The position numbers and the translations under genes were made by a program. Under the pieces are notes generated by a model, which was given only the letters and a program-made list of their open reading frames with translations, was not told the origin of the DNA and searched no databases. A stretch of 62,994 bases of DNA, filler included, from Reclinomonas americana ATCC 50394 (Eukaryota), in the NCBI GenBank assembly GCA_048213135.1. It is 5 parts of 2 records of this genome, joined end to end, with 100 filler letters (N's around TTAATTAATTAA, not from the genome) between each part and the next. Parts side by side here need not be neighbours in the genome. Positions count along the whole stretch, not along the records: positions 29,271 to 46,997 come from PS015663.1; 4 more parts are not named here. The stretch is one strand, 5' to 3'. The number at the start of each line of letters is the position of its first letter. Within the stretch, counting starts at the first letter, position 1. Below are positions 28,852 through 57,628 of the stretch, in pieces.

Positions 28852-29279
28852 GGTTCGTTGCCTTCTCACTCCACAAGGGCCATTGCACGTAGCGTCTCTC
28901 TCTCATTCACCATTCTGATGAGAGCCTGCGTTGCTGTTGCTCATACATTGCCTTTCTCCTTGTTTCCATTCCATGTCGCCTGCATTCTCTCTGCTTTGTG
29001 CCTGTGCCACTCTGAATCGTCCTTCATCTCTCCCTGGCATGTGCTGTATCTCTGTTGGCCCGCGCTGCACCTGCCTCATGAACTCTGTTGCTTTCTCTGC
29101 CACACGTCGTCGTTCCCTCTCCGCACTCCAACATCTTCCACTCGTTGGCATTCTCACCACGTCAAGTGCCNNNNNNNNNNNNNNNNNNNNNNNNNNNNNN
29201 NNNNNNNNNNNNNNTTAATTAATTAANNNNNNNNNNNNNNNNNNNNNNNNNNNNNNNNNNNNNNNNNNNNCGGGTGCGG

Positions 29280-29615: not shown

Positions 29616-29817
29616 GGACGACTTCCAGTGCAATTGTGGCGATTAAACACGTTGAGCTCTATTGTGGACGACTATCTACTGCATAGGTCGCTTCGTATTA
29701 TGGTGGAGCGCTCATCGTGGGTGGCGAGAGCGACAGTCGCGGGACGAACCGAACAATCGCAAAAAGCTCATTTTCAGCTATTTTCAATTCGACCATTTTT
29801 TCGACTTCTGTGGAGCC

Positions 29818-31410
29818 ATGATCCCCACGCTGGTACAGCGGCTGATTCGCACTTCGCTGCTGCCGCTGGAGGGTGCGCATCGACCGGCAGGCCTGGGGCC
29901 GCTGGAGGCTGTTCGCATCGCCTACACCGACCCTTCGAACGCCCGCACTCTGGTGGGCACCATGGAGAACTGTTTCGCCGTGGGTGTTGAGAAGAACGGC
30001 GTGCACATTGTGCGCGCCTCTGAAGACATCAATGGCAACCTGCTGGTCAGCACCGTCGGCACTGTGACCGTCATCAATCCCGATTCAGGGCTCGCCGAGC
30101 AAAAAATAGCCGCGTTGCGATATCTCGAAAAGAGCCACCTGCTGGTCATCGGCGTCAAGAGTCCGCCTGCTGTGTACGTTGCGCGCCTGACCACCCCGTC
30201 TTCTATCGGGAGCAACTTGGGCACGGTGTCTGCAAAGAGAGTCATTTCGTGCGCCGATCTTTCCGAGTGGAGCAACCACGCCAGTCTGCAGACTCTGGAC
30301 GCCGTGGTGGACGACGACGGAGACGGATGCTGTGTGTTTGTCGGTGGAGCGTGCGAGTACGAGTACAAGCAGAACACAGACTGCAGCATCACCGAAGAGG
30401 CGGGCACAGTCACCGATGTGATCGCCTGCGTTCATCGGGCACGACCTGTCGCCACGCTCGGTCCAGTGGCACCCATGATTGCTTTCGCCCTTCGTGAGGC
30501 TCCCACCAGCAATCCCGCCAGGCGCAAAGTGCCGACGCTGCAAAAAGGCTGCAAGTGGCTCTTCCCGAGTCCGTGGTCGCAGCAGCCAGCGCCTTCGAAA
30601 TCACCGAGATCATGCACGACCGGGTCCGTCTTTTACTACTTGACATGCCGCGGCCTTGGAGTGTGCCCCACCGATCGCCGCGTCCTCGCCTCGCTGGCGT
30701 TCTACAGCAGCAATCGAGTCAGTCATGGAGCTGACATGCACGATGGCTTCGTGCAATTCTGGGACATCACCCCTGTTCGCGAGCGAAACACTCAAGTCCG
30801 GTCGTGTGGCGAGATTCGAGTCAGTGCGAATTCCATGGTCCTGCACTTCCCCGTTCCGGACACCACCATGCTGCCGCCGAACGACTATGTGCAGCTCGGT
30901 TCGCTTGTGTGGACTGACGACGGCAGTCAACTTCTGTTCAGTGTTGCCACCGTCAACTACTTTACGCATGTGGTAGCTGTGCAAGTAGTCGAGCTCGAGC
31001 ATGATCCGCCGCAGCTGGAGATGCAGTGCAATGAGGCGGCCCGGCTCAACCACAATGTCGTGCCCCATAGCGGCAACATCGTGGCCACAGCGTTGGCTTG
31101 CCTGCCAGTGTCGTCGTCCGTCGTGCAATCGCCAGTTCGCGGTTACATTCCGTGCGCTGGCGCGCAAGATGGACGCGTGTGCTGGTGGGACTCGCCGTCC
31201 ACTGCAGTGCAGTCGTCGACAAGTCTGGAGCCGCCAGTCGCCATCCACACGACTAGCAACACCGGTGGTCATGCCACTCCTGTCACCGGCGTCGCGTTCA
31301 ATCTACCAGCGCACGCCGGTGATGCGCCGCGCTTCCTGCTCTCGTGTGCCTCTGGTCTGGACGGTACGCTTGTGGTGCGGCGACTGCGCGATCTCAATGC
31401 GCAACCGTAA
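29818..31410 (+). CDS. Intronless ~530-aa protein with WD40-like beta-propeller repeats
   Basis: Uninterrupted ORF containing DGFVQFWDI, GAQDGRVCWWD and GHATPVTGVAFN…SGLDGTLVVRRL. Confidence 0.7.
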   Translation: MIPTLVQRLIRTSLLPLEGAHRPAGLGPLEAVRIAYTDPSNARTLVGTMENCFAVGVEKNGVHIVRASEDINGNLLVSTVGTVTVINPDSGLAEQKIAALRYLEKSHLLVIGVKSPPAVYVARLTTPSSIGSNLGTVSAKRVISCADLSEWSNHASLQTLDAVVDDDGDGCCVFVGGACEYEYKQNTDCSITEEAGTVTDVIACVHRARPVATLGPVAPMIAFALREAPTSNPARRKVPTLQKGCKWLFPSPWSQQPAPSKSPRSCTTGSVFYYLTCRGLGVCPTDRRVLASLAFYSSNRVSHGADMHDGFVQFWDITPVRERNTQVRSCGEIRVSANSMVLHFPVPDTTMLPPNDYVQLGSLVWTDDGSQLLFSVATVNYFTHVVAVQVVELEHDPPQLEMQCNEAARLNHNVVPHSGNIVATALACLPVSSSVVQSPVRGYIPCAGAQDGRVCWWDSPSTAVQSSTSLEPPVAIHTTSNTGGHATPVTGVAFNLPAHAGDAPRFLLSCASGLDGTLVVRRLRDLNAQP

Positions 31411-32025: not shown

Positions 32026-34394
32026 TCAGCTGCTGCTCGGTGGTGGCGCCGGCTCGGCACACGCCACCGACTCGCCCGAGAACTGCTTCCACAAGATCTC
32101 CATCTCCCCCACCTCCTTGATGTGATGCACGGCCACGACGCCTTGCTTCAGCTGATCGCCGCCGTACACATCAAAGCCGGTAAAGGGCAGGTCGTACACG
32201 ATCTTGCCGTTGTTGTTGTAGAGGTAGCCGCCGAGGCGGACCTTGACGCAGTACGACAGGATGTGGTCGCCCTGCACGCACAGACACACAGAGTGTGAGA
32301 GAGAGGGAAAAGACGAAGACGACGACGACCTCGGAAAGGCGCAACATTGTACGGCGCACGCGGTTCCACACTGGGGAAATACTGATTGTGCCGGCGCTGC
32401 ATGTCCTCCAGATCCACATTGCACGACAGGATGGTGCCGTGGCGCACCAACTCACGCATTGCCGCCCCCGAGAACATGTATGTGCCGCCGTACACGATGC
32501 CCAGCAGCTCCCCCGAGAGCCACACGTCGGTGCCCACTGAGTACAGAAACAATATCAGCGCAAAAAAAATCGGACGCATGGCCAGGAGCACGCACGCGCA
32601 CCATCAATCATCGCCTTCTCCGTCTCCCACAGCAGCTGGAGCATGCCCTCCGGCTGCAGCACCATGTCGTCGTCCAGGATCAAGTAGAAGCGCTTGTCGG
32701 GGAAGGCGCGCCACAAATCAATGGGCGCAAACTGCATCTTGCGCTGTCCGGTGCTCTTGTTGGCGCGAAAAGGACACCCGGAGATCTTCTGAATGCCGAG
32801 CTCGGGCACGTCGCGATCCGACAGCACCACATGATGCGGAAACGAGCGCAGAAACGTGCGCTGCTGACACGCCACGCGCACCGTGTCCTGAAAGCGATGC
32901 GACACAATCGCCACGCCCACGTCGTCAAACGAGGGAGCGCGAGTGCGTGCACGCTCCACGTACGTTCCCCACGCGGGTGTAGGGCTGTAGACGTTGGAGC
33001 TGTGGAGTGGGCGGGAAGTGAGAAGAGTGTGAAGGCGGGTCCAGATATCGATGGGAGAGGGTGAAGGTGAAGGGGGAAGGGGAGGGAGGGAGAGAGGGAG
33101 AGAGGGTGATGGGAGAAAGAGAAAGTGCGTGAGTCTGTCTGAGTGTAGACTGTGAAAGTAGTATCTGTGCGCAGCCGTGTGTCCAGTGCCGATATCAAAG
33201 GGCAGAGACACACGAGGGAGGGGGGGGGGGGGGGGGGGGGGAGAAGGAGGCAGGGGAGGGANNNNNNNNNNNNNNNNNNNNAAAGAGAAAGTGCGTGTGC
33301 CAGTCTGAGAACTGTATTCGTGCGCAGCCATCTGTGTTCAGCGTCGATATCGATGGGCAGAGACACACAGAGAGGGGGGAGAGGGCGAAGGAGGCAGGGA
33401 GGGAGAGTGTGTGTGAGAGAGAGTGAAGGGAGAAAGAGAAAGAGAAAGTGCGTGAGGCTGTCTGAGTATTGCATGTCAGCGTGGTATCTGTGCGCAGCCG
33501 TGTTTCCAGTGCCGATATCGATGGACGGACACACAGAGAGGGGGAGAGGGTGAAGGAGGCAGGGAGGGAGAGAGTGTGAGAGAGAGAGAGGGTGAAGGGA
33601 GAAAGAGAAAGAAAAAGTGTCCGTTTGTCTGAGTATTGAACGTCGTGTCTGTCTGCTTCTCCGTCTGTGCGCAGCCGTGTGTGTCCAGTGCCGATATCGA
33701 AGGGCAGACACAGAGAGGAAGGGAGAGGGTGAAGGGTGAAGGAGAGAAAGGAAGAAGGGAGAGAAGGGAGAGAGAGAGAGTGCGTCTGAATATTGAATGT
33801 TCTGCCTCTGTCTGTCTGCGTGCATCTGTGCGCAGCCGTGTGTGTCCAGTGGTGATATCGATAGGCAGACACAGAGAGGAGGGGAGGAGAGAGAGGTCAA
33901 AGGAGAGAGAGCAAGGAAAAAGACAGACAGAGACAAAGAGAGCGAGAAAGAGCGACAGAGAGAGAAAGAGAGATTCTCAGTGTCTGCCTGTCTGTCTGTC
34001 TGTCTGTCTGCGTGTGCGTCTGTGTGTCTGTGTGTCAGTGTGTGTGTCAATGAGTGTGCGCGCGCTTACTCAACTCTTTCAACCGTCTCGGTCCAAACAA
34101 CGCCTCGACCGCTGCATCCCACCACGACAGATGCGGCAATCGCCTATGCGCATGCTGTGACTCACGCTCACACTCCAACGCTGCACCACCACCACCAGTC
34201 ACTCTCTCACTCTCATCATCAATGAGAAAAGGGCGCGTCAAGTGCGCGGCCGTGACTGTGAGCGCGTTGTTGTTGTGCTCGCGAGAGACGACGAGTGTGG
34301 TGATGGCGATGGCGATGAGAATGGCGGCGGGGAGGAGCAAGAGGCAGAGGAATGTGCGAAGGATGAACCGCCATCGCGTTGCCGCCACTGCCAT
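32026..34394 (-). CDS. Type II membrane glycosyltransferase, GT31 (Fringe/galactosyltransferase-like)
   Basis: N-terminal TM (FILRTFLCLLLLPAAILIAIAITTLVV), FPDKRFYLILDDD (DxD motif), YGGTYMFSGAAM, N|GDHILSYC and AVHHIK; four exons. Confidence 0.75.
33040..33880. repeat. Intronic tandem array of ~160-175 bp units (5 copies plus a partial)
   Basis: CTGTGCGCAGCCGTGT…CCAGTGCCGATATC…GGGCAGA at ~33165, 33320, 33487, 33665 and 33825. Confidence 0.85.
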
Positions 34395-34658: not shown

Positions 34659-34952
34659 TCTAGAGATCAAGAGAGAGAAAGGCAGAGAGACGGATGAGTG
34701 TGTGAGAAAGAGAGAAAGAGAAGCGCAAGAGGTGAGCGACTAAAACAGGAGAGAACGTGAGTCCCCGCGCGCGCGCCCTCGACGTCGATCATCTTTGGAC
34801 TGCATGAACACTTCTTCCACATCCCTCGCTTGGTTTGCGCAAAGAGTGTGGATATTGCAGTGCATGCAGTGTGATACGGTGGCACCGGCGACAGGAAGTT
34901 TGCTGTCCGCCAAAATGCATCGTCCTTCTTGTTGTCCGACAGGCGAGTCGTC

Positions 34953-37900
34953 ATGCGTCGGAGCGGAGGTCGTGCGCGGACTTTCGAGGAGGTCGTGCAA
35001 CAGTACGATGAGGCCTTGCAGTATTTTGACAGTGGTGATTATGCGACTGCGGCAACCCTCCTCGCTCGCTGCATGCGTGACTTTGAGGACTTGCGCGGCC
35101 TTGATGACGATGCATGGACTCTTGCGTGTGCACACAACTACGCGAATGCTCTCTTGAGTTCGGAAGATGCACAGAGCGCGTTGCTGGTGTACGAGGATGT
35201 GCTGGAGAGGAGGAAGCGCGTGTTGGGTGCGACTCACAAGGCGACATTGATTTCGGCTTCCTGCATGGGCAATGCGCTGAGGCGGCTCGGGCGGCATCGC
35301 GAGGCCATTGCATTGCTGCGCGACACGGCAGAGAAGCAAGAGCGCTATGGGGCCAAGGAGGACGTCAAGGATGTGTTGGCAACGTTGCATCGCTTGGCAC
35401 AGGCGCTCGATAAAAACAAGGAATATGAGGAATCGATCCGGATTTCACGTGACGTTGTGCGCCGGAGACGTGAAGTGCTGGGCGAGGATCACCCCTCGAC
35501 GCTGACGAGCATGTATAACATGGCAGTGACGCTGGCCGACGCAGGCGGTTTGGCCAGTCTGGAGGAGGCGTTGGAGATCTTTGAGGAGGTGTTGCCACTC
35601 CGTCGCCGCTTGCTGGGACCGGACCACGAACACACCAAGAACACGGCTGCCAGCATCACCTACACCCGAGCAGCCATTGCGACACTCCGCAAGGCTTCTT
35701 CGACGACTTCCCCATCTGGTACGTCAGTGATGCACTCTTTTATTCCTCCTCCACACTCTTGTTGTTCATCCGCAACTGCAGCTTCCTCTGCTTCTGCATC
35801 GGCTCCACCACCAGTGCGTTCTCCGGTGAGACAAACCTGACAAGTGCCGATGCTTACCCAACACTGACCTCTCTGTGCACCAACCAGGCAGCCAGGGAAC
35901 TCGGCCCGGGAACAGCAGCAGGAGGCAGCAAACGCACAACTTCAACGTAATCTGGTCGAACAGCAGCGCCTCGTGCAGCAACAGACGCAGGAGTTGACCA
36001 CGCTTCGCAGCCAGCAGTCACAATCGCAGGCCACCATCTCCCAGCTGCAGCGAGAACTGGCGCAACAACGGACGACGACGCAGCAGCACGAAGGAACCAT
36101 CGCGCAATTGCGGCGCGAGGTGGAAGAGCAACAGTCAGCGGTCCGCGAGCGGACTGCCCAAGTGGATGCATCGCAGCAGCAAGTGCAGCGACGCGATGCC
36201 ACCATCACTCAACTGCAGCGTGAGAAGAACAATCAGCAAGCCACTATCCGCCAGCGGATTGCCCAGGTGGAGGCAGCACAGCACCAGGCGCAGCAACACG
36301 AGGTCAGCATCGCGCAACTGCGGCGCGAGGCAGAGACGCAGCAAGCCACGATCCGCGAGCAGACTGCTCAGGTGGAGGCAGCACAGCAGCTGGTGCAGCA
36401 ACACGAAACTACCATCGCGCAATTGCGGCGCGAGGCGGAGGAGCAGTTACAGCGAGTCGGGCAGTTGACCGCTCAACTGGATGCAGTACAAGAGGCCGGT
36501 CGCGCAAGTGCAGCGAATGTTGCACGCCTGCAGCAGGAGCTGGAGGAGCAGAGGGCGCATGGGGAGCTGCAGCAAGAGGCCGCGATGCAGCTCCTGCGCG
36601 AGGAATGTGCGGCTCTTCGCGTCTCCCTGGAGCGAATGGACGAGCAGCGACAGCAAGAGTACGACCGAGCGCAACGACTGGCCGCTGATTTGGCCGCCGC
36701 GCAGCACGAGCTCAACCACCGCGGTGAGCATGAGTGAGTGTGTGGCGACGACTGCACATGCACTGCCCCACTAACCAGCGTTTTGCAGTTCCGCTCACGG
36801 CCTTTACCTGGGAGCAAGTTGGCGCCATCACATATGGCTTTGCTCGTCGTCTTGGCACGGGTGGACAGGGAAGCGTATTTTCTGGCACGTGGAAGGAGCA
36901 GCAGGTGGCTGTGAAGGTGTTCAACAGCGATGCGCCGTGGTGCATTGAGTCGTTCTCCAATGAGGTGAGAGTATTCGTGTGGGGAGACGCGGTGATCATC
37001 GCATTGTGTTGATAATTGTTTGTGCGGTACAGTTGGAGAAACTGAAGAGTGTGACGGTGCCCGGTGTGGTGCGCATGATTGGTTTCGCCGAGTCGGACCG
37101 CGGAGAAAAGTGCATTGTGCTGGAGGCCATGAGGTTGGTGGAGATCGAATTCTCTTGTTGCATGCAATTCTCCTGGCTCGTTTGTTGCTGATGCGCCATT
37201 CTTCTCTTGATCATTCTCAAGCGAGCACAACCTCGAGCACCGGTTGTTGGAGTATCAAGCACTCGGATTGCCCGTCATGGCCATCGAGGAACGGATGTCA
37301 TGCCTGCTTCGATGCTCGGAGATCGTGGCGGCGCTGCACAGGTGAGGCAGCGAGTGAAGTGGGAAGTCAGGTACATGTGGTCGTGTCTCATCGTCTCTTC
37401 TTGTTGTGCGCAGGATGGTTTGTGTCGCTGTCGTGCAACTTGTTGACGTCGTTTCTCACTCCCCTTCCCTCTCACTTTCTGTTCTCTCCTTCCCTCAGAA
37501 TGGTGAGTCTCTGTGCGCTCGGTTGTGAGTGGTGTGAGCTCGTTTATTCACCATGATTCGCAGTCATTCACCGCGACTTGAAGCCCGCCAACATCCTGTT
37601 TGACGAACGCGGCCAGGCATGCATCTCAGACCTGGGAATCGCGCACTGGTTCCGCACTGGCGGGGTGAGTCTCCTTTCCCATCCCTCGCCTTCCCACCGA
37701 TAATGTTCTCATGAGTGCACGTGTGGCGACAAGCAGACACACCTGTCGGTGCAGTTCGCCGGCGACCACGACTATGCTGATCCACAGGCACTGCGTGGCA
37801 TTCTGCGCCCCAGTACCGACGTATACTGCCTCGGATTCATCCTGCTGCAACTGTTCTCCGGTCAGCCAATTGCCGAGGTACACAAGTGGATCGAGGGAAT

Positions 37901-38387
37901 GGTGGAGGACGACGACGTGGCGAGACTCGATGAGGCCGCTGTGCTACTGGCCGACACCGCGGTCGGTCGGGGATGGCCCACGTCTGTCAATCGCCGTCTT
38001 GTGCGCTTGGCCATGCGGTGAGTAGTAAGCATCAGCCCCGTGCATGTTTGCACTGCGTATGTTGTCCCTCATGACTCAAGAAACAGCTGTGTCGACTATC
38101 GCCCCAATCGCCGCCCGAGTGCCGACGAACTGGTGACCGAGATGCGCGATCTCGCTGCGTTGTCGTGCCGTCGCGCGTGTGTTCTCTGTTACGATGTGCG
38201 CGACACTCGACTGCGTCCGTGCGGCCACGAGGTGTTGTGCCGCAACTGCGCGCAGCAAGTGGTCGAACGACGTGGCGAGTGTCCACTCTGTCGCACCTCG
38301 GTCACTCGCTTCGACTCGGGAGACGAATACGGATATCACACGATTGTGCTGGCGCCACTGTCGGCTGCGGCAGCTGTGAGCCCGTGA
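34953..38387 (+). CDS. TPR - coiled coil - RLK/Pelle(IRAK)-like Ser/Thr kinase - C3HC4 RING protein, copy 1
   Basis: Exons 34953-35718, 35782-35825, 35892-36723, 36789-36964, 37033-37133, 37222-37341, 37414-37417, 37499-37502, 37564-37664, 37734-38017 and 38087-38387 splice in frame. Motifs: [16 protein letters not shown] (42-aa TPR type), [35 protein letters not shown]…PCGH…CRNC…CPLCR. Confidence 0.9.
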
Positions 38388-39568
38388 TGACTGTTGGCAA
38401 GTGCAAAACATGTAATGACAGATTTCATCTGGCAAGTATCTCTCTTTCTATCTCTTGCCGCACCGCGTGCAGCTGTTAGAGGGAGTCTCAGACTGGCTGC
38501 AGGTGGCACCACTGTAGCTGCCGCAGCAGTTGCCGTTGCCAAGGTGAGTGCCAGCGGCCACGGCCGGGTAGTTGTTGCAGGGGTAGTGTGGCACTGGCAA
38601 GTCAGATCGGCCTCCGATTATGTGCACAAGAATGGGAGAGAGGGAAATAGAAGGGAGAGAGTGAGGAGCGATCAAGCAAGAAGCTGTGGGGCTGTAGCGA
38701 TGGAGATGATCAGTATCTCTTTCTCTCTTCATCGCTCATTCTCTCTCCTCTGTCACTTTCTCTTCGGCCCTCAATCACCTTGCAAAGAGCGATCGAAAAT
38801 AGGGAGTGCGCAGGTACAGAGACTGCGTTACAGTGCGAGGGGAACTGAGTGAGAGGTAGTGACTTTGGCGAGTGAAGATTGCAGTGCGTGCGAGAGGAAC
38901 ACGATCGTGAGGTGCGAACGAGGAGACTGAGCGCATGCGAGAGAAAAGACGTTCACGAGACGTTATGGTCGATCGATGAAGACTCCCTCTGCTCTACTCC
39001 ACAGATTTCCCTTTCTCGATTCAGCGATCGAAAGAGACTTGCATGCAGAGAGCACACACTCAAGACACTGTGGTGCACGTGATGTGCGAGATCGTGAGCA
39101 TCGAGGGAGACGAACGCGCGACGGTAACTGATCGCCGGTGAGATATGAGCAAGCAACCAGGCAAGAGTGTGAGAGCGAGTTTCTGTGGTGGTAAAGGATG
39201 ATGGCGAGTGGGTGTTGTAACGTGTTCGCGGCGATCTGGCAAGAACAGGATCTCGAACATATTTGTTATGGCACATGGAGGGAGGAAAGACCGACGGCAA
39301 CTGTTTCGATAATATCCATGCATTGCATAGAAGGGGAGCGACGTCGCTTGCTGTCTCAACGAAGCGACGTGAGCAGACTCGCCCTCGACGTTGATGGTCT
39401 TGCATTGGACTGCACAAACACTTCTTCCACATAGCTCGCGTGATCTGCGCAAAGAGTGTGGATATTGCAGTGCATGCAGTGTGTAATAAGGGGGCAACAA
39501 CCACAGGAAGTTGGTGCTGTCCGCCAGAATGCATCGTCCTCATGTTGTTGTCCGACTGTCGAGTCGTC

Positions 39569-42500
39569 ATGCGTCGGAGCGGAGGTCGTGCGCCGACTTT
39601 TGAGGAGGTCGTGCAGCAATTCAATGAGGCCCAACGGCACAACAGCAGTGGTGACTATGCCACTGCCGCTCCCCTTTACGGTACCTGCTGGAGAGATTTT
39701 GAGGACTTGCGCGGCCCCGACGATGAATGGACGTTGTTGTGTGCACACAACTACGCGCTTGCACTCTGCGATTCAGGAGATGCACAGAGCGCGTTGCCGG
39801 TGTGCGAGGATGTGCTGGAGAGGAGGAAGCGCGTGTCGGGTGCGACTCACAAGCGTACCCTGCTAACGGCTTCCTGCATGGGCGACGCGCTGAGTCGGCT
39901 CGGGCGTCATCGCGAGGCCATTGCATTGCTGCGTGACACGGCGGAGAAGCAGGAGCGCTATGGGGCCAAGGGGGGCGAGGATGTGTTGGCAACGTTGCAC
40001 AACTTGGCACTGGCGCTCAATTTCAACACGGATTACGAAGAGTCGATCCGGATTTCACGAGACGTCGTGCGCCGGCGACGTGAAGTGCTGGGCGAGGATC
40101 ACCCAGACACGCTGACGAGCATGCACAACATGGCATGTTCGCTGGCCGACGCAGGCGGCTTGGCCAACCTGGACGAGGCGTTGGAGATCTTCGAGGAGGT
40201 TTTGCCGCTTCGTCGTCGCGTACTTGGGCCGGACCACGCGCATACCAAAACCACGGTTGACCGCATTACCCACACCCGAGCGAAGCTCACCGCACTCCGC
40301 AAGGCTTCTGCGACGACCTCCCCATCTGGTACGTCTGTGACGCACTCTTTTTTGATTCATCCTCCACGCTCTTGTTGTTCATCCACGACTGCAGCTTCCT
40401 CTGCTTCCGCATCGGCTCCCCCGCCAGTGCGTTCCCCGGTGAGAGAAACTGACAAGTGCTGATGCTTGTCCGTCGCTGATTTCACGTGCACCAACCAGCC
40501 ACCACCGGTGAACTCGGCCCGCGAGCAGCAGCTGGAGGCAGCAAACGCACAACTGCAACGTGATCTGGCAGAGCAGCAGCGCCTCGTGCAGCAGCAGACG
40601 CAGGAGTTGACCACGCTTCGCAGCCAGCAGTCACAATCACAGGCCACCATCGCCCAGCTGCAGCGAGACCTCGCGCAACAGCGGGCGACGACGCAGCAGC
40701 ACGATGGAACCATCGCACAACTGCGGCGCGAGGTGGAAGAGCAGCAGACGGCTGTTCGCGAGCGGACTGCTCAAGTGGATGCATCGCAACAGCAAGTGCA
40801 GCGTCGCGATGCTACAATTACGCAACTGCAACGCGACAAGAACGATCAACAAGCCACTCTCCGCGAGCTGAGTGCCCAGGCTCAGCAACACGAGGCCACC
40901 GTCGCGCAACTGCTGTGCGAGCTGGAGACGCAGCAAGCCACTATCCGCGAGAGGACCACGCAGATGAATGCAGCGCAGCAGCTGGTGCAGCAACACGAAG
41001 CCACCATCGCGCAACTGCGGCGCGAGGCAGAGGAGCAGCGACAGCGAGTCGAGCAACTGACCGCTCAGTTGGATGCAGCGCAAGAGGCCGGTCGCGCAAG
41101 CACAGCAACTGTTGCACGCCTGCAGCAGGAGCTGGAGGAGCAGAGGGCGCATGTGCAGCCACAGCGAGAGGCCGTGGTGCAGCGCCTGCGCGAGGAATGT
41201 GCTTCTCTTCGAGTCTCTCTGGAGCGAATGGACGAGCAGCGCCAGCAAGAATACGACCGCGCACAACGACTGGCCGCTGATTTGGCCGCCGCACAGCACG
41301 AGCTCAACCACCGTGGTGAGTGCGAGTGAGTTTGTGGTGAAGACTGCAGATGCTGACCAGCGTTTTGCAGTTCCACTCACGGCCTTTACCTGGGAGCAAG
41401 TCGGCGCCATGACAAATGGCTTTGCCCATCGTCTTGGCACGGGCGGTCAGGGAAGCGTGTTTTCTGGCACGTGGAAGGAGCAGCAGGTGGCCGTCAAGGT
41501 GTTCGACAGCGATGCGCCGTGGTGCATCGAGTCGTTCTCCAATGAAGTGAGTGCTGCGTGTGTGCGGAGACCAGGTGATCATCCCCCTGTGTGTTTATTG
41601 CTTCTTGCTGGAATGCAGTTGGAGAAACTGAAGAGTGTGACGGTGCCTGGTGTGGTACGCATGATTGGTTTCGCCGAGTCGGACCGCGGAGAAAAGTGCA
41701 TTGTGCTGGAGGCCATGAGGTTGGTGGACATCGCGTATTCCTGGATGCATGCGGTTCTCCTGGCTCGTTATTGCTGATGTGCTGTTCTTCTCTCGTTGCT
41801 TCTCAAGCGAGCACAATCTCGAGCACCGTTTGTTGGAGTATCAAGCACTCGGTTTGGCCGTCATGGCCATCGAGGAACGCATGACATGCTTGCTTCGTTG
41901 TTCGGAGATCGTGGCGGCGTTGCATAGGTGAGGCAGCTGCTGCAATTAGAAGTCAGGTGCATGTGGTCGTTTCTCATCCTTTCTTGTTGTTGTACAGGAT
42001 GGTTTGTGGTGTCGTTGTGCAGCTTGCTGTTGACTTTGGTTCTCACTCCCCTTCCCTCTCACTGTCACTGCATTCTGTTCTCTCGCCTTCACCCAGAATG
42101 GTGAGTCTCCGTGAACTCGGTTGTGAGTGATTTGACCTCGCTTGTTAACCATGATTCGCAGTCATTCACCGCGACCTGAAGCCCGCCAACATCCTGTTTG
42201 ACGAGCGTGGTCAGGCATGCATCTCGGACCTCGGAATCGCGCACTGGTTCCGCACTGGCGGGGTGAGTCTCATTTCCCATCCCTCCCCTTCCCATCAATA
42301 ATACACTCATGAGTGTGGTGACTAGCAGACACACCTGTCGGTGCAGTTCGCCGGCGACCACAACTATGCCGATCCGCAGGCACTGCGTGGCATTCTGCGC
42401 CCGACTGCCGATGTGTACTGCCTTGGTCTCATTCTGCTGCAGCTGTTCTCGGGTCTGCCGATTGTCGAGGTACACAAGTGGATCGAGGCGATGGTGGAGG

Positions 42501-42979
42501 ACGACGACGCGGTGAGACTCGATGAGGCCGCTGTGCTACTGGCCGACACCGCGGTCGGTCGGGAATGGCCGACGTCTGTCTGTCGCCGTCTTGTGCGCTT
42601 GGCCATGCGGTGAGTAGTAAGCATCAGCCCCGTGCTTGTTTGCACTGCGTAGGTCGTCCCTCATGAATCGAGAAACAGCTGTGTTGATTATCGACCCAAT
42701 CGCCGCCCGAGTGCCGACGAACTGGTGACCGAGATGCGCGATCTCACTGCGTTGTCATGCCGTCGCGCGTGCGTTCTCTGTTACGATGTGCGCGACACCC
42801 GACTGCGTCCGTGCGGACACGAGGTGATGTGCCGCAACTGCGCGCAGCAAGTGCTTGAACGACGCGGCGAGTGCCCACTCTGTCGCACGTCCATCACCCG
42901 TTTCGACTCGGGAGATGAGTACGGATACCACACGATTGTGCAGGCACCACCATCAGCTGCGGCCGCCGTGAGCCCGTGA
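39569..42979 (+). CDS. TPR - coiled coil - RLK/Pelle(IRAK)-like kinase - RING protein, copy 2
   Basis: Same 11-exon structure and motifs as copy 1, frame intact; microexons at 41998-42001 and 42097-42100. Confidence 0.9.
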
Positions 42980-43989
42980 TGACTGATATTTGGAAGTGCA
43001 AAACATGCAATTACAGATTTCATCTGACAAGTATCTCTCTCTATCTCTCTTGTCTACTGCGTGCTGCTGTCAGAGGGAGACTGGACCGCTGTAGCTGCCA
43101 CAGTAGTTGCCGTTGCCGAGGTGAGTGCCAGCGGCCACGGCGGGGTAGTTGTTGCAGACGTAGTGCGGCACTGGCAAGTCAGATCGGCTGATGGAGACTG
43201 TGATTATGTGCACAAGAAGGGGAGAGAGAGGGAATTAGAAGGGAGAGTGTGAGGAGTGATCAAGCAAGAAGCTGTGGGGCTGTAGTGATGGAGATGATCA
43301 GTATCTCTCACTCTCTTCATCGCGCCTCATTCCCTCTCCTTTCACTCTTTCTCTCTAACACTCAATCATAGTGCAAAGAAGCGATCGAGGGAAGGCAAGT
43401 AGGGAGTGTACAGGCACAGAGACTCTGGAGAGGAACTGAGTGAGAGGCTGTGATTTGGCGAGTGAAGGTTGCCGTGCGTGCGAGAGAAACACGATCGTGA
43501 GGTGCGAACGAGCGAGACCGAATGCACACTAGAGAAAAGACGTTCACGAGACATTGTGGTCGATCGATGAAGACTCCCTCTGCTCTACTCCACAGTTTTC
43601 ACTTTCTCAACTCAGCGATCGAAAGAGACTTGCATGCTCTCTCTCTCCACTGGTATTCGATTTCCAAATTTGGATTATCGAATGCGCACGGCCCTCAAAT
43701 CCTGCACACGCGCGAGGACCCAACTCACCACATCGCCACCCTCTCTCTCCTCCTCCCCGTCTCTCCCCCACACCCACCTCCCCCTCTCCCTCTCACCAAG
43801 TTACTCCGCCACCATCAGCACGGAACAATTCCATCGAACGGCTCTACAATTTCGGAGATTGACGCGAGAGAAGACACACACACACTCTCTCTGCCCACAC
43901 TCTCACTCTGCGGTGGTCGTGCGCTCTGGTTGAATTAAGCCCCCTGATTCTCCTGTGCCACCCACATCCCGCTCCTGCGTGACCAACAA

Positions 43990-46304: not shown

Positions 46305-47227
46305 CGGAGCTCCGAACAAGTCGAGAACTGCGATCTTCACCGCATAATCGTGGATTACCTGCATTCTTTTGTGTTCAACGTAGTTGCGGAAGGTGACGCC
46401 TTCACTGCTTCGCCTGGCGCACAGATCCGGACCGGCTTGTATTCTTGCAGAAACTGCAGTTGCAACGCTGCAATTTGAAGGGTCCTCGGCCGGATCTGAA
46501 GGAAGCAATGCAGAACTTTATAACTCGACAGCTGTTTCCGAGACGAGAGTGAGGGGGTGCAAAAGATTCCAGCAGGAGTGAAAAAAGCCATGGCAAGCGT
46601 CAACGAATTCGAATAATTACAAGTGCAGTTGTGAAAGCTGCGGACACTTTCTGCAAAAAGATGCAGGTGGCGACCAGCACAGCTTCACTGCTGATCACCC
46701 GCGGGCAGTGCTTTCCACTTGCAAGGCCGCAAAAAAGCAGCTTTACATAAGAGGTACTACAAAAACTGCATTTTGGACAAGGACAATTGCGGTTTTTTGT
46801 CGTTCTCAGGCGCGAGAGTGACTGCTGCACTCTCTCCTTCTCTCTCGTGTGTGCCTGCTCTGTGCCAAAGATATGAGCTCGCCACGACCCACCAGTGGCA
46901 CACCTCGTCGTCATCAGCATCGGCATGGTCATCATCATCGCACAAACGATGATGATCATCATGCGAGTGGATCTTCTTCGTTGACTGCAGCAGGCGANNN
47001 NNNNNNNNNNNNNNNNNNNNNNNNNNNNNNNNNNNNNNNNNTTAATTAATTAANNNNNNNNNNNNNNNNNNNNNNNNNNNNNNNNNNNNNNNNNNNNGGA
47101 GGAGGACTCGGGGAGATGGGCGAGGGAGATATGCAGAATGTGGTGTTTATGCGTGGGCCACTGGAGGCGGATGATGTGGGGGCGACGGTGAGGGAAAGGG
47201 AAGGGAAGGGAGATAGGGGGAGAAGGA

Positions 47228-47757: not shown

Positions 47758-48483
47758 TCTTCTTCTTCTTCTTCTTCTTCTTCTTCTTCTTCTTCTTCTC
47801 TCTCACTCTTTCTCGCTCGCCTGTATCACGTGCCGTGTTCTCAGCTGTCATGTTCTTCGCATCGTTCTTTCCCCCTGCTCTTTGCCGCTCTCATCTTCCT
47901 CGCAGTTCGTGTGACATGCTTCTCTGATTGAAGGCTATGCACTGCGCTCTTGTGTGGTCGCTTCACTCGTTTTCTTTGTCTCATCGCGTTTGTCTTGAAC
48001 TTGATGCGAGGAGAAGGGGAGGCGATGGGGCAAGGGAGAGGGAGGAGAAGCTGAGGAGAAGGGAGAAGGAGGAGAGAGTGTGTATGCGCGCGCGCGTGAG
48101 AGGGAGATACTCACTGCCTTTCTTGCGGGCAGCTGTCAGTGTTGCTATCTTCTCTGACTGAATGCTGTGTTTCATTCACCAGCGGCTGTGTGTTTTTTCG
48201 GCGCTCATCTCGCGTCTCATTCTCTCACTCCCACTCTCTCTTCTCTCTCACACACTCTCCCTCTCCCTTTCCCCTCACGCGCCGTGACTTTCGTTGACAT
48301 GGCCACCGTGGCATCCATTCTGCCGCTCTTGACACCCTTTGTTTCCTTGTCGCTTTCTCTCGCCCACTCGCTCACTGTACGGTCTTCCTTCTCCCTCACT
48401 TTTCCTCTTGCCCCCTTTTCCCTTCTCCCTCACCCTTTCCCTCACCTTCCCCCCCTTCGCAGTTCGACTCCAAACCCGAATCG

Positions 48484-51400
48484 ATGACCTCACCCTCCCA
48501 AATCCCGCTCACCGGCGGCAGCAACCCCCGCTCCCTCGCCGAGATGGCCGACGAACCCCTCGACAAGATCGGCTGGTCCGTGTTCGGCAAGGTACGCACT
48601 CTTCCCCACCTCCCCCCCACACTCTCCTTCCATCACTCACTTTTCTTAAAACCCCGCAGGTGCTGCTGGCCGGCTCCGGCTTCCTCGCCGACGCCTACGA
48701 CCTCTTTGTGATCAACCCGGTGCTGGCGAATCTCGCGCTGCTGCACCCGCTGACCAATTTCGACAAGTCGCTCATCTCCTCGATGGCGCTGTGGGGAGCG
48801 GTGGCCGGCCAGCTGTGCTTTGGCCTGCTGGCCGACATTCTCGGCCGGCGCATCATTTTCATGTGCACCCTCGGCCTCATCACTCTCGGCTCGGTCGGCT
48901 CGGCGCTGTCGTTTGACACGCCCGCTTTCAGTGTGTACCAGCAGATTGCCTTGTGGCGCTTCTTCCTCGGCTTTGGGGTCGGTGGCGAGTACCCGCTGTC
49001 GGCCACGGTCGCCAACGAGGGCTCGACGAGGAGATATCAGGGGCGCATGATGGCCGCCGTGTTCTCCATGCAGGGCGTCGGCTCCATATTAGCCTCGGGT
49101 CTCGTCGCGCTGTGCCTGGCCATGGGCGCCAGTCACGAGTTCACCTGGCGGTTCGCGCTGGGGTTCGGTGCGCTCCCCGGGCTCATCACCTTCCCCTTCC
49201 GGTGCGCCATGGAGGAGACGGAGGCGTTCAAGGAGACGCAGGCGCAGGAGAAGAAGAGGGGGGCGGGGAGGGTGACCACGGTGGATCGGATGGTGGCGGC
49301 GGTGTTGCGTGATGAGGGAAAGGGGGGAAAGGGGGGAAAGGGGTAAAGGGGGAAGGGGGAGAAGGGGAGAGGGGAAGGAATAGGGGAAGGGTGGAAAGGG
49401 CATGGATAGGAGAGGGGTGAAGGGCGAAGAAAGAAGGGGAAGGAGTAGGGGAGGGAGATGTTGGAAGGAGAAGGGGAAGGAGAAAGGATTGGAGACGGTC
49501 ATGAGAGGTGGTTTTGTAGAAATTAGAGATGCACGCGATAGATGTGCGAAATATGTGTTGGGTGAATGGTAGGCTGGAATAGTCGCACATAATGACAGCC
49601 GAGTGCGATGTTGGAACAGGGGAAGGAGAGGGGTTGGAGAAGGTGGTGGTGAGAGATTATCGGTTTGTAGAAATCAGTGGTGCACGCGATAATTGTGTTC
49701 ACTTGTTGCATAATTCTATATGTTGGGTGAATGGTAGGCTGGAATAGTTGCACAGCTGTGAATGATAAGAGTGATGGTCGACTGCGATTGACTGAAGAGA
49801 TTCACGGAGAAGGTTGATGTTGACCGTGTGGTGTCTGAGGAGGAGTAAGAATGGCGGCACGCTGAAAGAGCGCATGACAGACAGGGCACAACCAATCAAA
49901 TGAGTTAGTGTGGCGACAGAGAAAGTCTGGCTCTTTCTCGATACGGTGTGATTCTCCGCACAATTTGTGCAAAGAAAGGTAGAAACTGAGTGACTGAGAA
50001 TAGAATGGCAGCGATCGGGTGTGGCGAGAGAGGCAATCTCCGCAATATAGAGGAGACAAAGAGTTTATTGATCGAGTGAGGCGCAGTTGAAGAGAGGACA
50101 TGCGGCACACGGAGGCAACTGATATGCACAGAGATAACCGGTTGAGTGCGTTCGGACAGAGGAGTGGATGGGAGCGCAGTTGCAGTGAGGCGTACAGAGC
50201 GTGGGATTATACTTGCGAGCGACGGCACAGAAAAGACTCAATCAGTAGAATGAGTTCAGAGTAACAGCACATGGAATGTTTGTTTGTGAATGATTGCGAA
50301 CGAGATACACGGAGACGGCACAGCAGACGTAAAGCTATTCAGCGGAGTGCGTTAGGATAGTTGAATGCCTCGTGGCGAGATGTACAGCGCAGTGTGCGAA
50401 CGACCGGGGGAGGGGTTCACGAGGAACGAGACTGCAGAGACACATCGTAGATTTGGAGATGGGTATCGGTTCTCTTCCCCTGTCTATTACCGCCGACGTC
50501 TAACTTCTACCACACAGGCGCGCCTTTTGGAAACCGATGCTGGGCACGGCAGGCGCGTGGTTCTTGCTGGACGTGTTATTCTACGGTATTTCCCTCCCTT
50601 TTCCCTCCCTCCCTCCCCCTTCCCTCTCTCCTCCCTCCCTCACCCACCTCCCACAGGCAACGGCCTCTTCACCGCCACCATCGCCCGCATCGCCGGCCTC
50701 GGCAGCTCCCCCGAGGACGACGCGCTGAATGCGCTGTACATTGGGTGCATGGCGCTGCCGGGGTACTTTTTGACGGTGATATTCTTGGAGAAGGTCGGCC
50801 GCAAGCCGCTGCAACTGTTCGGCTTCCTCATGATCAGCGCCCTCTACTTGGTGCTCGGCCTGGCCTACAGTGCGCTCCTCGATGTGCCGATTGTGTTTGT
50901 GATTGTCTACGGGTGCACGTTTTTGTTTTCCAATTTTGGTCCGAATGCCACCACGTATATTATGCCGGGCGAGTTTTTCCCCACCCATGTGAAGGTCTGT
51001 CGGGAGGGGAAGGGGCGTGAAGGGGAAGGGGGAGGAGAGGGAGAAGGGGGAGGAGAGGGAGAAGGGGGAGAAGGGGGAGGAGAGGGAGAAAAGGGAGAAG
51101 GGAGAAGGGGGAGAAGGGAGAGAAGGGGGAGAAGGGAGAGAAGGGGAGAAGGGAGAGAAGGGGGAAGGGGAGAAGGGGGAGAAGGGAGATAAGGGGAAAA
51201 TGGAAGAGGGAGCAGAAGGTGACTAGGGGAGTGAGGACTGGAAGAGCGAGCACGTGCGTAAGATAAAGGATAAGAGAAAGAGAGTGGGGAAGGAAGGGAC
51301 GAGAGCGGGAGAGTGACAGAAACGAAGGAGAAAAGAGGATGTGAAGTGATTGGGAGAGAGGACAGGGAGTGCGAGTGAGTGCACGGACGAAATAACAGAA

Positions 51401-56142: not shown

Positions 56143-57628
56143 GGCGCGTGAGAGCTGTCAAAATGATAAGGTGCGGGACAACCCGGCACGGCTTTGAAGG
56201 GCTCCTGGTGAAGTGCATGGGAAGAGTGCGTGGGAGCACTTCAACAACACAAACACCATTCTCGCTTTGGATCGTTGCTCTCTCGGAGCTTCTGTTGCGA
56301 TCCGCAAGGCTTGGACAGCACGTCGCAGCTGTTTTGACCGCCCATGCCAATCATGCCAAGCTGCAGGCTTGTTCTATCTTCCCTCGCTGACCACCTTCGT
56401 CTGCATGCCTCAGTCCGACACGCGGGAGTGCAGCTGCAGTCGACGACGGCGAAGAAGAAGACGATGATGACGAGGAGGGTTAGCGTGACCGCCGACTGCT
56501 GCGCAGTCTCTTGCGTTCGGGCGATGCGCTTGGCGCTGGTGCAGCGGTGACCTGTTATACGAAAGAACTACAGCCTCATACTGTGTCTCCAATAACCCGA
56601 CTGCCAGTCTCCACAGCTGAAAGAATCTGAGGCCTTCCTCGTCGCTCCCACTCCCACTCTAGAAGCACAACTACTGTGCACTGGACCCTCTACTGTTCTC
56701 TTGATCTCAGCATAAACTTTGCTTCCAAATCTCCCTCTCTCTCCCTCTCTCTCTCTCTCCTCGTTCTTAAATTGCCAATTCCCGTGTCTCTTCCACTCCA
56801 AATCCCAGCCAAGTTCCACTCGTTCCCAACATAATGCCTTCTTCCCCTTCTCCCTCTTACCGATCCTCTCAAATCAGCAGCACAAACCATCTTTCCTCTT
56901 CGACAACTTTCTCCCTGTGGACCAATCCTTCACCATCCCTTCCCTTCCACCTCTTCCCTGCAAGTGAGCATCTCAAATCCCCCTCAGCACAATCGTGCCC
57001 TTCTCCTTTTCCCTACCTCCCTCTCCGAAGTGAATATCTCTCTCACACTGTACCGTTCCTTCACCATCCCTTCTCTCTCTTCTCACCATTCACCCTCAAA
57101 CTTTTCTGCACAATCATCTCAGCACAATCGTGCCCTTCTTCTTTTACCCTCCCTCCCTCTCCGACAATTGTCACTCTCCCGCACACTGGACCTTCTCGCT
57201 CCCTGCCTTCCCCACAAAATCGTCAACACAAACCACCTTGCACGCACCTTCTCCTGAACACCTTCCCTTCACCGCCCTTTCCCTTCTTGCCCCTCAGCAC
57301 AATCCACTGTGCACCATCTCCCCTCCAACAAGTGAACACCTTTCCTTACCGCCCTTTCTCCTCAAATCCTCAGCACAATCCACCTTGCACTGGCCCTTCT
57401 CCTTCCCCCCCNNNNNNNNNNNNNNNNNNNNNNNNNNNNNNNNNNNNNNNNNNNNTTAATTAATTAANNNNNNNNNNNNNNNNNNNNNNNNNNNNNNNNN
57501 NNNNNNNNNNNACCTACGTAACAACCTTACCTTACCTCCCTTCCTTCCTCCTACTACCTCCTACCACACTACCACCTACTCACCTCGCCGTCCTCTCCCC
57601 CCTCCCCCCCCCCCCCCCCCCTTCCTCA

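Follow-up and report, generated by a model that had tools for sequence, protein, structure and literature searches.

A tandem gene pair combining TPR, coiled-coil, kinase, and RING domains

Within the 62,994-nucleotide (nt) stretch of Reclinomonas americana ATCC 50394 DNA analyzed here (hereafter the window; NCBI GenBank assembly GCA_048213135.1), two intact tandem paralogs are encoded on the + strand (Table 1). Each protein is ordered as five tetratricopeptide repeats (TPRs), a disordered linker, a coiled coil, an RD kinase, and a C-terminal RING. An earlier sequence-only reading had proposed such a single-chain TPR / coiled coil / kinase / RING architecture for positions 34953–42979, and it is present in both gene models; the first of these positions is the ATG of copy 1, with the last being the final stop-codon base of copy 2. 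That both paralogs are intact, as had likewise been claimed, is borne out by open frames, matching junctions, and exon length differences that are multiples of 3.

Gene models were built from GT-AG sites and frame continuity on stop-to-stop frames. The introns are 42–169 nt long and of the GT-AG type in both copies. Between the two copies, exon identity is 86–98%, and every exon length difference is a multiple of 3; their introns are 80–93% identical, with 6 of 8 differing in length and none of these by a multiple of 3. At the protein level, the paralogs are identical at 804 of 939 aligned columns. When the region was compared with the window via blastn, two duplication units were delimited, sharing 85.1% identity over 4338 aligned columns; no third copy was found by tblastn within the window.

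Many N runs interrupt the window, a eukaryotic draft sequence whose GC content is ~56–59% around the gene pair. Several distinct contigs are strung together in it, and genes on either side of a joint therefore need not be genomic neighbors. The four joints are identical 100-base linkers of the form N44-TTAATTAATTAA-N44, with stops in all frames. Both paralogs lie on one contig, and the nearest joints (29171–29270 and 46998–47097) flank the pair. Scanning the window for Rfam families and tRNAs returned no match. Upstream of copy 1, a degenerate tandem array is found at ~33050–34024 (self-matches at ~170 and ~340 bases, 66–75% identity), followed by dense GA/CT and CA/GT microsatellites up to ~34740.

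Table 1. Positions in the window of the two paralogs, their exons and domains, the duplication units, and the contig joints.
Feature	Positions	Strand	Description
Gene copy 1	34953–38387	+	936 amino acids (aa); nine exons; all introns GT-AG; frame open from ATG to TGA
Copy 1 exons 1–5	34953–35825, 35892–36723, 36789–36964, 37033–37133, 37222–37341	+	
Copy 1 exons 6–9	37499–37521, 37564–37664, 37734–38017, 38087–38387	+	
Copy 1 TPR domain	34953–35702	+	Residues 1–250; five repeats of kinesin-light-chain type, each 42 aa, and a capping helix
Copy 1 disordered linker	35703–35825	+	Ser/Ala/Pro; downstream of the TPR domain
Copy 1 coiled-coil exon	35892–36723	+	277 aa; Gln-rich; 35-aa (105-nt) repeats; unbroken heptad register
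Copy 1 kinase domain	36789–38153	+	Exons 3–8, extending 22 codons into exon 9
Copy 1 C3HC4 RING	38178–38291	+	zf-C3HC4_3; shares an exon with the last kinase subdomain
Gene copy 2	39569–42979	+	930 aa; nine exons; same junctions as copy 1
Copy 2 exons 1–5	39569–40438, 40499–41315, 41371–41546, 41619–41719, 41808–41927	+	
Copy 2 exons 6–9	42097–42119, 42162–42262, 42326–42609, 42679–42979	+	
Copy 2 C3HC4 RING	42770–42883	+	Pfam 5.2e-11
Exon 6, both copies	37499–37521 (copy 1), 42097–42119 (copy 2)	+	23 nt; least certain junction; frame kept in both copies
Duplication unit 1	34774–39046	+	blastn of the region versus the window
Duplication unit 2	39380–43637	+	blastn of the region versus the window
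Joints between contigs	25932–26031, 29171–29270, 46998–47097, 57412–57511		Four identical 100-base linkers

TPR head and linker

At the N-terminus, Pfam detects TPR_10 (3.1e-31 and 6.1e-33 in copies 1 and 2, i.e., 106.9 and 112.3 bits versus a cut-off of 27.5) as well as TPR_12 (3.2e-29 and 3.7e-32, well over the cut-offs), placing the head among kinesin-light-chain-type TPR domains. The AlphaFold2 (AF2) model of exon 1 contains 11 helices at a predicted local distance difference test score (pLDDT) of 83.5, with residues 258–291 falling below 50. Five or six repeats had been anticipated; the 42-aa periodicity stands and the repeats number five, while the supposed sixth is a capping helix according to the 11-helix model.

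Comparison of folds via Foldseek returned 4y6c, a "kinesin light chain"-like repeat from Podospora anserina, as the top match (5.9e-9), followed by the KLC1/KLC2 cargo-binding domains and LGN; the probability was 1.00 for 4y6c and KLC1/2. By sequence, the closest proteins among 120 listed matches are actinobacterial TIR/NB-ARC-TPR proteins (35–43% identity), and a RING Pfam family occurs in none of these 120. With TIR/NB-ARC-TPR proteins best by sequence and the Podospora repeat best by fold, the TPRs are indeed of the type found in fungal and bacterial proteins resembling nucleotide-binding leucine-rich-repeat receptors (NLRs), as had been put forward.

Coiled-coil stalk

The Gln-rich coiled coil of ~280 aa noted in the sequence-only reading is real, as judged from its Gln content, its 3.5-residue periodicity, and its AF2 helices. 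Over ~270 aa, Gln accounts for 23.8% of residues, and the periodicity power of LIVMF residues at 3.5 residues is 3.13 versus 0.15 ± 0.16 for shuffled sequences (0 of 2000 shuffles reach 3.13); one heptad position is 58% LIVMF along the entire coiled coil. AF2 modeled the coiled-coil exon (pLDDT 86) as helices spanning residues 6–221 (216 residues) and 228–276 (49 residues). The 105-base tandem repeats (35 aa, or five heptads) lie at 36080–36490 and 40692–41082 with 73–79% identity, and the exon is 15 bases shorter in copy 2 than in copy 1. Pfam matches on the Gln-rich frame were to coiled-coil families only, all sub-threshold. Complex prediction for two coiled-coil exon copies yielded a score of 0.09 and a mark of 0.32, which speaks neither for nor against binding.

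Kinase domain

In copy 1, the kinase displays a Gly-loop, VAVK, and the alpha-C Glu, with DLG replacing DFG and YADPQ replacing APE. The Gly-loop, VAIK Lys, alpha-C Glu, HRD Asp, catalytic-loop Asn, and DFG Asp are all found in both copies; the active-kinase residue set is complete, and the domain is predicted to be a catalytically competent RD kinase. All motifs quoted in the earlier reading were recovered, with the LAMRC...RRPS motif requiring the intron-8 splice.

Pfam scores for PK_Tyr_Ser-Thr on the N-lobe exon (18.5 and 20.6 bits) fall under the 23.1 cut-off because the kinase is split across seven exons, and the C-lobe exon matched no Pfam family. The kinase was identified instead from phmmer searches of PDB, library matches, and scores of the spliced domain. 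With the C-lobe exon as the PDB query, IRAK4 accounts for all of the top 26 sequences (~4e-6), followed by PBL2, ScRIPK, LysM-RLK, 2qkw (which we take to be Pto), BIK1, BAK1, ULK4, FERONIA, and BRI1. For the N-lobe exon, the best match is SYMRK, then PTK6, B-Raf, and TGF-beta receptors; the SYMRK alignment begins at residue 2 and therefore includes the extension ahead of the Gly-loop. A full HMMER pass of the C-lobe exon over 1.84 billion representatives yielded 49 matches at E ≤ 0.001 (best, 1.1e-14). Pfam scanning of 46 of these (three were omitted for length) identified 45 kinases, mostly multi-kinase proteins, and one protein with a U-box; neither TPR nor RING was found in any of the 46. 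Among 19 kinase matches looked up, 18 were named, and all 18 are Viridiplantae kinases (land plants, Closterium, and Tetrabaena), in a match list that is biased in that only multi-kinase proteins accrue enough score from a 94-aa query.

Once spliced, the kinase scored 110, 80, and 78 bits versus the best plant domains. Descent from bacterial TPR-kinases was considered as well and was rejected on scores of ≤43 bits versus these proteins, compared to 110 for the plant kinase. A quick maximum-likelihood tree calculated from 44 kinase-domain rows groups both copies together near the base, adjoining a Closterium domain. This tree was built without RAF, MLK, RIPK, STKR, or other tyrosine-kinase-like (TKL) outgroups; as such, membership in the receptor-like kinase (RLK)/Pelle family is likely, though not settled. 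The proposed resemblance to IRAK/RLK/Pelle kinases is upheld by the best PDB matches (IRAK4 and plant RLKs and receptor-like cytoplasmic kinases [RLCKs]) and by the named plant kinases. Assignment to IRAK/Pelle proper is not. A Tyr gatekeeper is a hallmark of IRAK/Pelle; both copies carry Leu at this position, which precedes the hinge in ...CIVLEAM.... Moreover, Pfam detected no Death domain on any of the large exons, with the N-terminus instead being TPR. The missing death domain and Leu gatekeeper together exclude IRAK/Pelle proper.

C-terminal RING and selection across the chain

The RING was detected as zf-C3HC4_3 at 41.1 and 42.6 bits versus a cut-off of 27 (Pfam, 1.5e-10 and 5.2e-11 in copies 1 and 2). 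All eight metal ligands are present and are preserved in alignment to the RING of MEX3C, which is among the PDB matches (8.1e-8) along with RNF141, XIAP (3.3e-5), and cIAP2 (4.6e-5). Both the Pfam family (IAP/MEX3/MYLIP) and the MEX3C, XIAP, and cIAP2 structures agree with the C-terminal IAP-type RING that had been suggested. The layout is not that of a TRIM ligase, with the RING being C-terminal and no B-box match found in Pfam. The absence of an NTPase domain was also correctly called: there is no NB-ARC/NACHT Pfam match, and the TPR, linker, coiled coil, kinase, and RING fill the 936 aa.

Between the two copies, the ratio of nonsynonymous to synonymous change (dN/dS) is 0.22 overall. By part, it is highest in the TPR (0.33) and falls through the linker (0.25), coiled coil (0.21), and kinase (0.12) to the RING end (0.09). 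Purifying selection was shown on every part. The TPR is the fastest-evolving folded domain (0.33 versus 0.09–0.12); no positive selection was detected within it, with the highest single repeat at 0.96 (13 nonsynonymous versus 4 synonymous changes).

One polypeptide or separate genes

In both copies, exon 9 (94% identity between them) codes for the end of the kinase together with the RING, and this fusion is therefore independent of splicing; the kinase–RING join is certain at the DNA level. The remaining joins run through introns, namely intron 1 between the TPR and coiled coil (66 and 60 nt in copies 1 and 2) and intron 2 between the coiled coil and kinase (65 and 55 nt). That these two introns were placed only from frames and GT-AG sites leaves room for an artefactual explanation, whereby the TPR/coiled-coil and kinase/RING parts would be two adjacent genes per unit or some internal junction would be wrong, and an in-frame ATG within intron 2 of copy 1 (frame 36734–37012) could be taken in its favor. 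That ATG is, however, not present in copy 2 (frame 41061–41777). Moreover, intron 2 interrupts a codon at the identical position in both copies, the 55–66-nt gaps between parts are too short to hold both a terminator and a promoter, and purifying selection acts on the linker and coiled coil up to the junction. The first kinase exon of copy 1 also lacks an in-frame Met, such that a separate kinase gene would have no start there. We consider an artefact of either type very improbable. As for exon 6, an alternative long form was rejected, given that it kept the frame in copy 1 but broke it in copy 2.

A putative dual kinase/E3 signaling protein

Taken together, the gene pair may encode cytosolic proteins of ~930 aa, each with a TPR head, linker, coiled-coil stalk, RD kinase, and RING, that would carry out oligomerized dual kinase/E3 ubiquitin-ligase signaling; we hold this interpretation with roughly even confidence. 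Through the stalk, the two paralogs would assemble in parallel as homo- or hetero-oligomers, and binding of a protein ligand to the TPR head could alter how the chains are held. Adjacent kinase domains would then phosphorylate each other's activation loops, with phosphorylation tuning the RING. The latter would act as a dimer with a ubiquitin-conjugating enzyme (E2), ubiquitinating either its own protein or whatever the TPR holds, in parallel to reports for plant PUB33. A stress or defence signaling role is plausible, and an immune-sensor reading is allowed by the kinds of domains, the tandem duplication, and the faster-evolving TPR.

Several points weigh against this dual-activity interpretation. 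Splicing and exon–intron structure were deduced from sequence alone, with the 23-nt exon 6 having a weak donor (GTTGTG). Pfam was run on raw reading-frame pieces, and domain calls stem from single exons or local comparisons. Both copies have DLG at the DFG motif and a Gln at the position of the APE Glu, changes that might reduce kinase activity. The kinase pair sits on a branch of 1.27 changes per site in the 44-row tree, apart from the Colocasia kinase + U-box protein P0139; this long branch and its position away from the kinase + U-box protein would make the likeness to PUB33 one of analogy rather than descent. Finally, the sequence searches made yielded no protein with the four-domain order, and hence no homologue showing its conservation.

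Two other functions for the same polypeptide must be considered. The chain could have no part in defence and serve constitutively as a ligase-kinase for regulation or quality control. Its TPR would then recruit clients or cargo of the cell itself, as kinesin light chain and the U-box ligase CHIP do, and the kinase would only regulate the ligase. After the Podospora protein, the fold is nearest to the KLC1/2 cargo-binding domains, all parts are under purifying selection, and the TPR–helix–E3 order resembles that of CHIP. In addition, the plant analogue PUB35 reportedly acts on an abscisic acid (ABA) transcription factor rather than in immunity (10.64898/2026.02.10.704836). The orthologues expected of such a protein did not, however, appear at >~50% identity among 1.84 billion representatives or in two metagenome scans, and a recent tandem duplication with TPR divergence better fits a lineage-specific role; we regard this constitutive function as rather unlikely.

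Alternatively, the chain could be an NTPase-free cytosolic innate-immune receptor, with the TPR sensing a pathogen ligand, the coiled coil oligomerizing, and the IRAK-like kinase and RING signaling defence or death. Such a role would suit a TPR closest to TIR/NB-ARC-TPR proteins and the Podospora repeat protein, a kinase of the kind used in plant and animal immunity, a tandem duplication, and a TPR that is the fastest folded domain (dN/dS 0.33 versus 0.09–0.12). Weighed against this are the lack of positive selection (highest single repeat, 0.96), the presence of only two copies in the window searched, and the use of the same TPR type for cargo binding in kinesin light chains. IRAK-like kinases also occur in P. 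infestans without any known immune system (PMC3019232). An immune receptor appears doubtful. Still less probable, in our estimation, is a complete receptor-to-output innate-immune module, i.e., an IRAK/RLK-type kinase and IAP-type RING placed behind an NLR-type TPR sensor and clustering stalk, without an NTPase, that was fused naturally in a sparsely sampled lineage of protists. Were such a module to exist, the pairing of this kinase kind with a RING and induced-proximity signaling would have arisen outside plants and animals.

Relationship to known proteins

Searches directed at the same architecture gave no homologue. In a word-based search of the kinase-tail + RING exon versus longer proteins, none of 543 candidates reached E ≤ 0.001; metagenome scans with the exon 9 and exon 8 alignments gave 196 and 172 pattern matches, with 0 confirmed; and ESM Atlas returned no usable match for exon 9. 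The open-access literature searched contained no description of the four-domain combination or of a protist RLK/Pelle kinase with RING or TPR. The assertion that the architecture had not been described therefore stands for the four-domain combination only, as stalk–kinase–E3 fusions with dual activity and links to plant immunity have been published. Precedents for joining a kinase and an E3 to a helical stalk are plant PUB-VI/RLCK-IXb, KEG, and MAP3K1.

The closest parallel is to PUB-VI/RLCK-IXb proteins (PUB32–35 and PUB50–53), which share with the window proteins a helical/coiled-coil region, an RLK/Pelle-type cytoplasmic kinase, and a C-terminal E3 in one chain. In these plant proteins, a USP domain precedes a long helix, which is followed by an RLCK kinase and then a U-box. 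PUB33 is reported to be active both as a kinase and as an E3, with autophosphorylation setting the two inversely; it also forms homomers and encounters pathogen effectors, whereas PUB35 acts on an ABA transcription factor and not in immunity (10.64898/2026.02.10.704836). Colocasia P0139, a protein of this type, is among the matches of the window kinase. The window proteins fall outside the group in having a RING and TPRs instead of a U-box and N-terminal USP, and since their kinase does not group with P0139, the fusion looks independent of the plant one.

Likeness to IRAK4/Pelle lies in IRAK4 being the best PDB match of the C-lobe exon and in the N-terminal extension ahead of the Gly-loop. IRAK/Pelle kinases work with the RING ligases TRAF6 and Pellino. 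In the window protein, however, the death domain is missing, the gatekeeper is Leu, and the ligase is fused rather than being a partner protein. An IRAK4-like kinase has been placed in the last eukaryotic common ancestor (10.1101/2020.01.27.920793).

Arabidopsis KEG and mammalian MAP3K1 (MEKK1) likewise carry a RING-type ligase and a protein kinase on one polypeptide. They differ by having the RING or PHD N-terminal of the kinase, by belonging to other kinase groups, and by having neither TPRs nor a long coiled coil; their repeat domains are ankyrin/HERC2 and TOG/ARM, respectively. CHIP/STUB1 and LRSAM1 have a repeat sensor/adaptor head, a helical dimerizing middle, and a C-terminal RING/U-box ligase, with no kinase; the TPRs of CHIP are of another type, and LRSAM1 uses leucine-rich repeats.

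On the sensor side, NB-ARC-TPR and TIR-NB-ARC-TPR proteins of bacteria, fungi, brown algae, and Acanthamoeba have the same TPR_10/TPR_12 repeat type, but carry a STAND NTPase and are without a kinase–RING output. Those of Ectocarpus and Acanthamoeba are proposed receptors (PMC4053784). A kinase and TPRs also share one chain in bacterial Ser/Thr kinase-TPR proteins and in a TKL from an oomycete; P. infestans has five IRAK-like kinases and one TKL with C-terminal TPRs (PMC3019232). In both the bacterial and the oomycete proteins, the kinase comes first and the TPRs last, without a coiled coil or RING.

If the dual kinase/E3 model is right, a ligand-binding head, oligomerizing stalk, kinase, and ubiquitin ligase would be present in one chain, and thus constitute a compact natural system for phosphorylation–ubiquitination coupling. 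The proteins would parallel plant U-box kinases while having arisen independently of them, and would add a data point on the spread of IRAK/RLK-type kinases and NLR-type TPR heads among eukaryotes.

Other features in the window

On the same contig as the kinase–RING genes, an open frame of 584 aa lies at 29656–31407 (+); its amino-acid complexity is normal, and it matches no Pfam family. At 32151–33337 (−), frames with a DDD-containing stretch are glycosyltransferase-like by impression, and no Pfam match at E ≤ 0.001 was obtained for 32151–32603. Elsewhere in the window, an unusually divergent HECT ubiquitin-ligase exon lies at 22513–23034 (+; Pfam HECT, 7.4e-26); only 5 longer proteins matched it at E ≤ 0.001, the best being 45% identical, with Pelomyxa schiedti UPL7 at 31%. 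Two frames at 23750–25424 (−) match phosphatidylserine synthase (Pfam PSS, 9.9e-13 and 4.6e-8), and exons of a major facilitator superfamily (MFS) sugar-transporter gene are found at 48333–51189 (+; Sugar_tr, 4.4e-21 and 3.4e-7).

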